A DNA stretch of 64,000 bases, taken from Escherichia coli. Lineage in GTDB: Bacteria; Pseudomonadota; Gammaproteobacteria; Enterobacterales; Enterobacteriaceae. Where the stretch lies: NCBI RefSeq assembly GCF_050920415.1, contig NZ_CP169310.1, one strand, 5' to 3'. The first letter of the stretch is position 1, and every line of letters begins with the position of its first letter. The position numbers were made by a program. Below, one piece after another: positions 36,001-39,000 of this stretch.

Positions 36001-39000
36001 GCTGCCAACATCACTGCCTGAGCAAATTCGTGTACATGATTATATCCGGGATCGGAAAAACATCCGGAAAGTTCCGGTAGTAACGGAAAAGAACGGCGCA
36101 GTAAATCATGATAATATTCAGCATTATATTGCCTAGAATTAAAACGAGTTACCGGTGCTTTTACCCGGGAAATAGATTCCTGAAAAAAAGCCTCCTGAAC
36201 ATCTCCAAGGGCGAAAATATCCAGCTTCATTCCGGCTCGTTCATGAGCGAGAATTTCATTGACAATAAATGTTTCTGAAAAGCGGGGATAGCGTTTAACC
36301 ACATATCCGACATAAGGGTGTTTATTATCCATTACACTCTCCATGCCATTGATTTTAATTATTTTCTCTCCGCGCTGTAAATATCGCGTTCATTTTTTCT
36401 GTAAAGGAATGCAGCCCATTCAGACTGAGGTAAAGTCGTGGATCTGAAGGACACCAGTCGGAAATCAGCCAATCAGTTATTGACTGTGGCGTCAGACTGT
36501 CCGGATGCAAACATGTAACCAGATTCTTTTCTGCCATCCGTGAAGCACGTATCCATTGCTCAAGACGAGGAACAATACGGGGAATAATCAATGCCCGTTT
36601 CCGTAATGAAAGAATTTCCCGTAAGGTGTTATATCCCCCCATTGCCACCACGCTGTGCGTATGCTGTAGAAGAAAAAGAGGATCAGATACAAAACGAATA
36701 ATATGTAAATCATTACGCATGGACGCAATACGCTGTAATGATGTCACTTCCTCCCGAGCCATCTGGCTACCGGTAAGAATAACACCGTCCATCCCTGGCG
36801 GTAACAATGTCTCTGCAAATACAGATGCAAGGTGGTAGCCATCCTGCCCTCCCCCTGTAAGACATAATACGAATGGACGAGAAATCAGAGACTGAAATTG
36901 CTCATCCTGTAACACCGATGGAGATAATGGAACATCCGGATATCCAAGAAAACTGATTTTTCGGTATACTGATGGTTCCGGAGCAAGATCAAGCGACAAA
37001 TCATAGAATGAACGATCGCCATAAATCCATATATCAGAATAATACTGACGGACAATCGTATAATTATCTGCAGCATGCCATTGATGACGAACAACTGATG
37101 GTTCATCAATAATATCCCTGAGTCCAAGAATCAGATGCACATTATCATCAACCAATTCCGGAAGCACCGGCAGCAGTTCTGATAACGCCCCAGCAGGTAC
37201 ATTATCCACAACCATTACATCCGGACAATATTCACTCAATGCAGCTCGAATTATCTGTCTCCGAAGGCTAACCAATTTCCGGGTATTATTGCCCAGTGAC
37301 CGGGGGTGATATTTGCCGCACAACGTTTTGGCATAGGCTGGTAACGTAAGAATATCTGAGCGTTCAGGTAGTGTAAATAATCCGGATTCACGGGCACTGT
37401 TAATAATCAAAATTTCAGTATCAGAAAACCTTTTCTGAACTGCTCCTGCAAGCAAAAGATTTCGCCGTAAATGCCCAAGCCCCATCGTATCATGAGAATA
37501 AAACGCCAGCTTCATATCATCAATAAATTTAAAATGTCAATATTTCTATCATTTTTAAATAGCTACCGCACTAATTATAACAATTAGCATTAAACTTTTT
37601 AACCCATTTTGTTTTTAGATTTAATGTTTTAAATACTGGCAGATACTCAGCAATTTTCCCAACGAGATAAAATGCTATTATTTTTTAACATCCTTTTACA
37701 CCAGTACCCAAGTATATAAAATAAATAATAAGTCATCTTTCTAAATAATTTTAACTAATTGTGTACTCCTCTTTAAAATGTGCACAATTAGTTAAAACTT
37801 GGCTTCTACATTCTCTAGATGTACACATCCCTGTTTGCAAGGCTGAGGTGTACTGGCAATAGCGGACACCACCATTTGTTCTTTTTCTAAGCAGCCATCT
37901 GATAATATTTTATCCTGAAGGCTGCCGGGGAGATATTCCCAGACGAGAGTGACGACGCTGACGATTGTAAAAAATCTCAATGTATTCCCGTATTACTGAG
38001 ATGGCCTCATCCCAGCTCTTAAAACGATAGTTGCTCAGACTTTCATTTTTCAGTGTTCCCCAGAAGCTTTCCAACGAAGCGTTGTCGTAACAGTTACCTT
38101 TACGCGACATTGATGTTTTCAGACCAAACTGTTCCTGTATGGCCCTGTAATCGTATGCTCAGTACTGTGAACCACGATCGGAGTGGTGGATTATCCCGGC
38201 AGGTGGGCGCTGGTTCCTGAGCACCATAAACAGGGCTTTACCCGTCAACTCTTTCGTCATGCGCTCTCCCATGGCGTAACCGACAATTTCGCTCGTATAA
38301 ACATCTTTGACGCCAGCGATATACAGCCATCCTTCCCGGGTGGCAACATACGTTATATCTAGTGGTCAACAAAAACTGGCCACCGCGTTAGAGTTTTTCC
38401 AGTATCGATTTTCCGATTCGTTTGGGGGTAACCCACCGTTATATTCGTGCGGTCTTAGTGCGCTGTAATATCCAACGATAGAGCCTGCGGTAATGCTTAT
38501 TCCCGACGGTTCATGCCTGACAATTACATATAAAAATATTCCGGAGGGGCTATCCAGCCCCTCAACAGAATAAGTTATCAGCGATATCTGCTATCAGAAA
38601 TCATACCGAATACCCAGTCTCCCTTCAGCATCGGTCTTAAAGTAACCATCAAAACTGCTGTTCACTTTTGCCTGTACTGACAGTTTATCTGTCAGCTTTC
38701 CGTTGATACCAAACGAAACGGTATAGCGGTCAGCTTTCTCTGCATCATAGTGACGGGCTTTCCAGTCATCACGTAGGGTCATTCCGGGCATATCGTTAAA
38801 CGTGATATTCCGCCAGATACCTGCCTTCAGCGTCATATTTCCAAATAATTTTTCTGCCTCAACCCCGGCTTTCAGCCACAAGGCATCGCCATCATGAAGC
38901 TCCACGCTCCGCTCCCGGCCCTGCAGACGATTTCCGTCCACCCGTGCACCGTTCAGTGAAACAGTCGGTGTTATCGACATATCAAGAGGGGATGCATACA

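Follow-up and report, generated by a model that had tools for sequence, protein, structure and literature searches.

A palindrome upstream of a plasmid-borne glycan operon of Escherichia coli as a probable pair of Caf1R-type regulator boxes

The subject of this analysis is a palindrome at positions 37749-37797 of a 64,000-nucleotide (nt) stretch of Escherichia coli DNA (hereafter the window), which lies upstream of an operon for glycan synthesis and export and probably belongs to the sites recognised by Rob-like AraC-type regulators. The window matches pCFSAN004181P, a plasmid of E. coli strain GB089, and its relatives (window coordinate = pCFSAN004181P record coordinate + 175). These conjugative plasmids are large, are of the IncFIA/FIB type and bear ehxA and sta1. 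The sites bound by MarA, SoxS and Rob in E. coli, the mar/sox/rob boxes or marboxes, have the consensus AYnGCACnnWnnRYYAAAYn that Martin and colleagues are said to have given in 1999. Like a marbox, each arm of the palindrome is an asymmetric site of ~20 bp, with GCAC and YAAA elements ~7 bp apart, of a type that a single protein recognises through two helix-turn-helix (HTH) units; the overlap of such a box with a -35-like hexamer recalls class II activation, and the closest solved structures are Rob and MarA. Marboxes, however, are highly degenerate, single and scattered over the chromosome, whereas the boxes described here are long, nearly invariant, arranged head-to-head at a fixed spacing and found at plasmid loci only.

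A second parallel concerns the regulon rather than the site. Dudley and colleagues reportedly showed in 2006 that AggR, a plasmid-encoded AraC-type regulator of enteroaggregative E. coli, activates fimbriae together with the chromosomal aai type VI island. In the present case, too, a fimbria-associated plasmid regulator of the AraC family appears to control unlinked virulence loci, including a cluster of the type VI secretion system (T6SS) of the T6SS-3/aai type. AggR nevertheless belongs to the Rns/CfaD branch, has a C-terminal DNA-binding domain and recognises another motif, and the regulon proposed here is predicted from sites alone.

The third described system is Caf1R, a Rob-like activator of the F1 capsule operon on plasmid pMT1 of Yersinia pestis (PMC8470410). 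The caf1R-caf1M intergenic region contains five 15-nt marbox-like repeats, R1-R3, R3' and R4' (Gahlot et al. 2021, PMC8470410; cf. Al-Jawdah et al. 2019, PMC6440114), with R1 located 56-70 nt upstream of caf1R and R3 and R4' inverted and 14 nt apart. R4' was identified as the Caf1R site by lacZ fusions and gel shift, with ~10-fold activation; it overlaps the -35 element TAAACT of the PM promoter (17-nt spacer, -10 element TAAAAT), and R3' helps activation slightly (PMC8470410). It is for Caf1R at R4' only that regulator binding and regulator-dependent transcription have been demonstrated in that account. Caf1R has been described as a dedicated local regulator, and its action on other loci is merely raised as a possibility in a review by the Caf1R authors (PMC9820224).

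The palindrome and its two boxes

Sequence comparison indicates that the palindrome is probably a head-to-head pair of boxes bound by the Caf1R-family regulator or regulators of the plasmid, encoded at 52986-53810 and 54341-55189. This reading is carried by the motif itself, its specificity, its conservation upstream of regulator genes of the family and its match to the published Caf1R boxes. The inverted repeat was recovered as described in an earlier note on this DNA, with two 18-nt arms, TTTTAACTAATTGTGTAC (37749-37766) and GTGCACAATTAGTTAAAA (37780-37797), that are 94% complementary (one mismatch) and separated by 13 nt, giving a total span of 49 bp. The surroundings described there also agree with ours: the near arm lies 234 nt from the ATG of the first glycosyltransferase gene at 37515 (about 235 bp in the note), and the debris of an IS3-family insertion sequence (IS), at whose edge the note placed the palindrome, is IS600-like and begins at ~37843, 45 nt past the far arm. 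The parts of the palindrome are as follows.

37749-37766, minus strand: promoter-proximal box; operon-strand reading GTACACAATTAGTTAAAA; marbox-like, with (G/A)CAC, 7 nt, GTTAAAA; 17.6 bits with the regulator-linked weight matrix
37767-37779, no strand: palindrome spacer; 13 nt if counted from the 18-nt arms and 15 nt if counted from the 15-nt cores
37780-37797, plus strand: distal box GTGCACAATTAGTTAAAA, directed toward the IS600 debris and away from the operon; 23.2 bits

No other inverted repeat in the 64 kb combines arms of 18 nt or more with no more than one mismatch and a spacer that does not exceed 30 nt. Comparable repeats were absent from 40 block shuffles that preserved local composition, and ~0.001 would be expected by chance per 327 nt of random sequence at the 27% G+C of the leader. 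Taken together, these three results argue that the palindrome is not a chance product of A+T-rich DNA.

Each arm corresponds to a marbox-like box (GTGCACAATTAGYTAA) with the layout GCAC, seven bases, RYYAAA. The box of the regulator family spans 15 nt, TGCRC-N-A-W-T-A-G-C-T-A-A, and combines an inner GCAC-like element with an outer GCTAA element about one helical turn away; the distal arm (TGCACAATTAGTTAA) agrees with this consensus at 14/15 positions and the proximal arm (TACACAATTAGTTAA) at 13/15. A weight matrix derived from regulator-linked sites only and with the glycan arms left out, gave these arms the 23.2 and 17.6 bits listed above, compared with best scores of 8.5-16.1 in 20 shuffled windows. 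For scans of whole plasmids we used a 15-nt matrix with a threshold of 13 bits. Under these settings the complete 224-kb GB089 plasmid contains exactly three box pairs, at the glycan operon, between the fimbrial operon and the regulator gene, and at a type VI secretion cluster, and no single boxes, and 50 kb of unrelated pMT1 DNA gave no match. The pMT1 matches of at least 13 bits were R1-R3 and R4' of the caf locus and one extra single box, with R3' scoring lower. This extra Caf1R-type box (TACACTATTAGCTAA, pMT1 36748-36762) stands ~185 nt downstream of caf1, outside the five repeats given in the consulted passages of PMC8470410.

The published repeats, as read from pMT1, are TGCACAAATAGCTAA (R2), TGCGCAAATAGCTAA (R1 and R3) and TGCGCGAAAAGCTAA (R4'), and the window boxes read TGCACAATTAGYTAA. 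R2 is identical at 14/15 positions to the regulator-linked box of the window and at 13/15 to the distal glycan arm, and the three highest scores of the E. coli matrix on the caf locus were those of R2, R3 and R1 (20.0, 14.1 and 12.9 bits). The match between the window boxes and the published Caf1R boxes indicates that they are the same kind of site. The regulators are related as well, since regulator 1 of the window shares 40.5% identity with Caf1R over 97% of its length, and the recognition-helix motifs YSGxSRRYLQ and YDSQQTFTREF are common to Caf1R and both window regulators. In both systems a virulence plasmid encodes the regulator beside a chaperone-usher operon that is transcribed in the opposite direction. 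The outer end of the proximal glycan box overlaps a -35-like hexamer, and the putative promoter TAAAAT-17-TATTAT is in the register of PM; such matches are common at 27% G+C, and a stronger promoter-like site is located 150 nt downstream. There are also differences: the caf locus contains a single regulator gene and five GCTAA-type boxes, most of them directly repeated at a 33-bp period, whereas the window sites are single head-to-head pairs, the plasmid encodes two tandem paralogues and the glycan arms have GTTAA. Caf1R is in addition described as acting locally, whereas here a pair also precedes the glycan operon, 15 kb away, and the type VI secretion cluster.

Comparison of 28 arms showed T2, C4, G12, T14, A15 and A16 to be invariant. 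Within a pair, one arm can deviate from the other at as many as 5/18 positions with each still fitting the box consensus, and the spacer sequence is free; because the boxes are kept while the pairing of the arms varies, selection acts on the box and not on base pairing between the arms. This bears on the three options of the earlier note, namely an operator for a dimeric regulator, a terminator or insulator hairpin, and the relic of a miniature element, of which the operator is the one that our results favour, with a regulator that can now be named. It holds as a regulator site but not as a short dimer operator, since each arm is a complete asymmetric box of the marbox type. The operator of a classical dimeric HTH repressor, with half-sites of ~4-8 bp one turn apart, was considered and rejected on the grounds that the arms are 15-18 nt long with centres 29-31 bp apart, that each arm contains two recognition elements, and that the caf box works in direct repeats. 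As each arm would suffice for one AraC/Rob-type domain, the palindrome is better regarded as two boxes ~three helical turns apart, and the distance between their centres would place two bound proteins on the same face of the DNA.

Box pairs at other plasmid loci

A search with a single arm found a third copy at 52902-52919, with two mismatches, and a degenerate, inverted fourth copy at 52870-52887, 14 nt to its left. This pair at 52870-52919 is arranged head-to-head with the geometry of the glycan palindrome and is flanked by a K88-like fimbrial operon and a regulator gene, which are transcribed divergently.

52870-52887, minus strand: second site, left box GTGCATTATTGGCTAAAT, directed to the K88-like fimbrial operon (first gene 52263-52822)
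52902-52919, plus strand: second site, right box GTGCACAATTAGCTAACA, ending 67 nt upstream of the regulator ATG; 30.0 bits
52986-53810, plus strand: candidate regulator 1, 274 amino acids, Rob-like AraC/XylS type, with N-terminal HTH_18 and weak C-terminal GyrI-like/Cass2 matches below the Pfam cut-offs
54341-55189, plus strand: candidate regulator 2, 282 amino acids, tandem paralogue, 43% identical to regulator 1, with N-terminal HTH_18 and C-terminal GyrI-like/Cass2 matches
NZ_CP122721.1 locus, 1915-1959, 9484-9527 and 11144-11158: boxes of an F18 plasmid, a pair each upstream of fedA and of the regulator gene, plus a single box near tpx

Solved structures nearest to the plasmid regulators are those of Rob, MarA, RamA and SoxS. 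Boxes are present upstream of regulator 1 only, not of regulator 2, and related loci carry one or two such genes. In plasmid variants that are ~5% diverged in this region, spacer and flanks vary and the boxes are intact or nearer to the consensus (three diverged variants); the second site of variant 08-00022, for instance, reads TTTTAGCTAATTGTGCAC, 14 nt, ATGCACAATTAGCTAACC. Strain 06-00048 has a different fimbrial operon upstream, and its similarity to the window begins exactly at the left box. Beyond these variants, all eight loci (8/8) of four regulator homologues with 91, 79, 73 and 50% identity contain an inverted GTGCAC(A/T)(A/T)TTAGCTAA pair, 12-14 nt apart, that ends ~63-70 nt before the regulator ATG. 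Regulator genes are thus preceded by the motif on pMT1, in the window and its three diverged variants and in the eight loci of the homologues, as expected of an autoregulatory site. In the literature searched, we found no description of E. coli members of this regulator family or of the regulation of the glycan operon.

The 50% identical regulator is the Caf1R-like protein of the F18-fimbria plasmid NZ_CP122721.1, from an enterotoxigenic strain of pigs. This plasmid has one pair upstream of the regulator and another ~230 nt upstream of fedA, 7.5 kb away, which indicates that the family uses such pairs at promoters besides its own.

The third pair of the GB089-type plasmids lies outside the window (NZ_CP012499.1, 99003-99051) and is a perfect palindrome, TTTTAGCCAATAATGCAC, 13 nt, GTGCATTATTGGCTAAAA, ~700 nt upstream of a 189-residue open reading frame (ORF) and of tssB and further type VI secretion genes. 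The plasmid type VI cluster has been classed as T6SS-3 in the RM9088 plasmid (PMC10562709). This site is kept in diverged plasmids with one symmetric change. An IS629-like (IS3-family) end is found near the palindrome. That the arm itself could be an IS3-family end was considered and rejected, as the alignment places the IS end (TGAACCGC...) 13 nt outside the arm. Local alignments of the three plasmid sites find likeness in the boxes only, and a larger duplicated segment behind them is thereby ruled out.

Mode of action and competing explanations

The features upstream of and within the operon that bear on how the site may act are listed here.

27337-37515, minus strand: glycan operon, the presumed target, encoding a GT28-like and two GT4 glycosyltransferases, an ABC exporter, two kinase-like proteins, an alginate-export-type porin and a nucleotide-sugar dehydrogenase
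36355-37515, minus strand: first glycosyltransferase ORF, ATG at 37515
37516-37748, minus strand: A+T-rich leader, 27% G+C over 37516-37842, confined to this plasmid lineage
37602-37574, minus strand: strong sigma-70-like promoter with an extended -10, TTAAAA (37602-37597), 17 nt, TGtTATAAT (37582-37574)
37725-37753, minus strand: putative regulator-dependent promoter, assigned by consensus, -35-like TAAAAT (37753-37748), 17 nt, -10-like TATTAT (37730-37725)
37843-38360, minus strand: IS600-like (IS3-family) transposase debris, the upstream limit of the ancestral sequence and outside the element

We infer from sequence that a regulator binds at the palindrome, in which direction it acts and which promoter it uses. 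In each arm, the inner GCAC and the outer GYTAA would be read by the two HTH units of one AraC-type domain. On the operon strand, the T that follows the proximal box GTACACAATTAGTTAAAA completes TAAAAT, which overlaps the outer end of that box; the promoter scan itself reports TTAAAA-18-TATTAT at 37754-37725. With the proximal box in the register of R4' and PM, class II-type activation appears the most likely mechanism, in which one regulator molecule on this box would activate the distal promoter, with a start near 37718. The distal box may assist, as R3' does slightly at caf, or may formerly have served a divergent promoter that was destroyed by IS insertions. AraC-type virulence regulators can act by counter-silencing of H-NS, and relief of H-NS silencing of the leader is a possible extra component that the 27% G+C makes plausible. 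The strong promoter (TTAAAA-17-TGtTATAAT) may drive basal expression. The glycan operon would in this way be co-regulated with the K88-like fimbriae, the regulator genes and the type VI secretion cluster.

Several observations weigh against this reading. The site is 234 nt from the ATG and ~170 nt upstream of the best sigma-70-like promoter, which stands in the most conserved part of the leader, and matches to -10 and -35 elements arise easily in A+T-rich DNA (6 found by the scan vs 2.5 expected). Both glycan arms have GTTAA, whereas all 24 other tabulated arms (linked to regulators, fedA or T6SS) have GCTAA, and the proximal glycan arm has ACAC where GCAC is expected. Among 8 plasmid variants, 3 of the 49 positions of the palindrome are variable, one of these substitutions being in the spacer, and the palindrome is no better conserved than the remaining leader. 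The plasmid regulators are present in 16/17 palindrome-carrying genomes, a co-occurrence that is confounded by the shared plasmid backbone and common descent, and the OkiPb01695 plasmid keeps the palindrome in a genome in which no copy of the regulator was found. Binding and activation at the glycan locus, finally, are themselves predictions.

The distribution of the palindrome was examined at several scales. With an 88-nt query, sensitive blastn searches found it in 17/5426 complete E. coli genomes, in one copy each and always upstream of the glycan operon, and the whole 327-nt leader was found only in 10 related plasmids of the plasmid collection. An exact scan for the palindrome pattern in ~100,000 species genomes returned five unrelated matches (hairpins of Clostridium metagenome-assembled genomes, Saprospiraceae and Heimdallarchaeota), none of them enterobacterial, and the full palindrome, searched for exactly, had no match in JGI metagenomes. 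Absence of the palindrome from homologous operons, along with a lack of effect on expression, had been named in the earlier note as evidence against its reading, and absence is what we found in the loci examined: the closest homologous operons, in an E. coli variant (90% protein identity), a Logan metagenome contig (55%) and Jejubacter (55%), have unrelated leaders without it. In the E. coli variant, whose first enzyme is 90% identical, DsbA-like and bactofilin genes lie upstream and the leader is entirely different (2237-2554 vs window 37516-37842). By eye, the similarity of this variant to the window appears to begin about where the coding region starts, which suggests an exchange of the entire leader in one piece. 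A regulatory role is not refuted by the absence of the palindrome from these operons, since it is with the regulator family, and not with the glycan operon, that the element occurs.

It is unlikely, in our judgement, that the main protein to bind the boxes is an unrelated dimeric regulator or another marbox-recognising factor, for example MarA, SoxS or Rob from the host chromosome. The distal arm does fit the MarA/SoxS/Rob pattern with one mismatch, cross-recognition is plausible given the nearest solved relatives of the plasmid regulators, and the OkiPb01695 case shows the palindrome in a genome without a detected plasmid regulator. Yet the degenerate marbox pattern GCAC-N2-W-N2-RYYAAAY is not enriched in the window (7 matches vs 9 expected), so that marbox resemblance is a lead and no proof alone, and the specific 15-18 nt motif is limited to the three plasmid pairs, tracks Caf1R-family genes over 40-91% identity and is 14/15 identical to a Caf1R box. 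A hairpin, acting as a terminator or insulator against read-through from the IS600 side or as a stem that stabilises the operon transcript at its 5' end, would account for the position between IS debris and operon and for the stable fold of either strand (single-stranded RNA folding energies of -19.2 kcal/mol, z = -5.0, on the operon strand and -20.9 kcal/mol, z = -7.7, on the other), and the one symmetric double change at the type VI site preserves pairing. We nonetheless hold this explanation to be improbable. The stem is followed by no T run (TTATTTAG on the operon strand, CTTGGCTT on the other), a terminator scan limited to loops of 3-8 nt, and hence shorter than the 13-nt loop, was negative, and an Rfam scan gave meaningless sub-threshold matches only and no family. 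Homologous sites keep the box consensus with a free spacer and arms differing at up to 5/18 positions, the caf boxes are mostly direct rather than inverted repeats in the published account, and the mismatch that is a wobble pair on one strand in the window is matched in 06-00048 by one that is a wobble pair on the other.

It is very improbable that the palindrome instead has no present function and descends from a miniature transposable element, or from terminal inverted repeats of an IS that remained after the rearrangements which built this mosaic plasmid. Insertion sequences are close at hand, with an IS600 end 45 nt away, IS630 inserted 20 nt away in two plasmids and, at the type VI site, another IS3-family end at 13 nt. 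Against such an origin, the palindrome occurs in one copy per genome and in constant context in the 17 of 5426 E. coli genomes, its leader is confined to the 10 related plasmids, and the ~100,000 species genomes yielded the five unrelated, non-enterobacterial matches. It also has no flanking direct repeat, its arms are unlike the ends of IS600, IS630 and IS629-like elements, and the arm motif is common to promoter regions that do not abut IS elements. Plasmids 08-00022 and N96 carry IS630 at the TA of 37816-37817, which is 20 nt away from the distal arm, where the window has IS600 debris, and both keep the palindrome; retention beside either IS600 or IS630 indicates that the palindrome belongs to the operon side of the junction and to neither IS.

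The palindrome itself is thus best explained as a known kind of site, that of a Caf1R/marbox-type activator, in a new place, and what this implies is that a regulator of the Caf1R family would serve several unlinked loci of a single virulence plasmid. Evenly balanced, in our view, is the broader proposal that the Caf1R family are plasmid master regulators whose two-box module places unrelated, IS-bounded cargo under one signal, here the K88-like fimbria, the glycan synthesis and export operon and the T6SS-3/aai-like cluster of an ehxA/sta1 plasmid. If so, one Rob-like regulator or pair of regulators, with a GyrI-like domain for a ligand, would coordinate a type VI secretion system with an adhesin and with a glycan that is either secreted or on the surface, forming a small, testable virulence regulon on a large conjugative plasmid whose hosts are Shiga-toxin-producing / enterotoxigenic E. 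coli, negative for the enterocyte effacement locus (LEE), from cattle, food and patients. Such a regulon would parallel that of AggR on a different AraC branch. It would also answer the question raised for Caf1R, of whether the family acts in trans (PMC9820224), and provide the first trans targets for the Caf1R family. The signature of a head-to-head TGCAC-N6-GYTAA pair, 14-16 nt apart, would then predict targets of uncharacterised members on plasmids of E. coli, Salmonella and Yersinia, including the member beside the F18 fimbrial genes of pig pathogens; the family has ~370 plasmid-borne members. Expression of the operon is probably conditional, and it may therefore be silent under routine laboratory growth.

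The glycan operon, its leader and the wider window

No description of the product of the glycan operon was found. The gene order GT28-like, GT4, GT4, ABC exporter, APH-type kinase and alginate-export porin is kept in two distant loci (Jejubacter and the Logan contig), and relatives of the first enzyme are also found in Erwinia, Serratia, Pasteurellaceae and Neisseria.

Within the leader, the strong promoter and, 5 nt later, an ops-like GCGGTAGC are both inside a 115-nt block that is invariant among the 8 plasmid variants. A degenerate box-like sequence (AAACAAAATGGGTTAAAA, 37597-37614, minus strand), which agrees with the arm at 12/18 positions and scores a non-significant 9 bits, overlaps the -35 element of this promoter. 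An ops/JUMPStart element (GGCGGTAGnnTG) was considered for the leader and rejected, the only candidate being GCGGTAGC (37569-37562, minus strand), which agrees at 8/12 positions and is without G1 and T11-G12; the leader has no Rfam JUMPstart match, the leaders of homologous operons are without GGTAG, and the ops-like 7-mer is found 5 times in the window. An integron attC site was likewise rejected, by eye, because the outer ends TTTTAAC and GTTAAAA misfit RYYYAAC and GTTRRRY, and no integrase gene was noticed near the palindrome in the annotation tables.

Full ops cores (GGCGGTAG) are located at 50249 (minus strand) and 49373 (plus strand), whose coordinates fall within the genes for the fimbrial usher and the chaperone next to it; their position within these genes suggests that they are probably coincidental. 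In the part of the window that is rich in IS elements and contains sta1, a 1.16-kb inverted duplication links 1-1158 and 14781-15941 with 97.9% identity.

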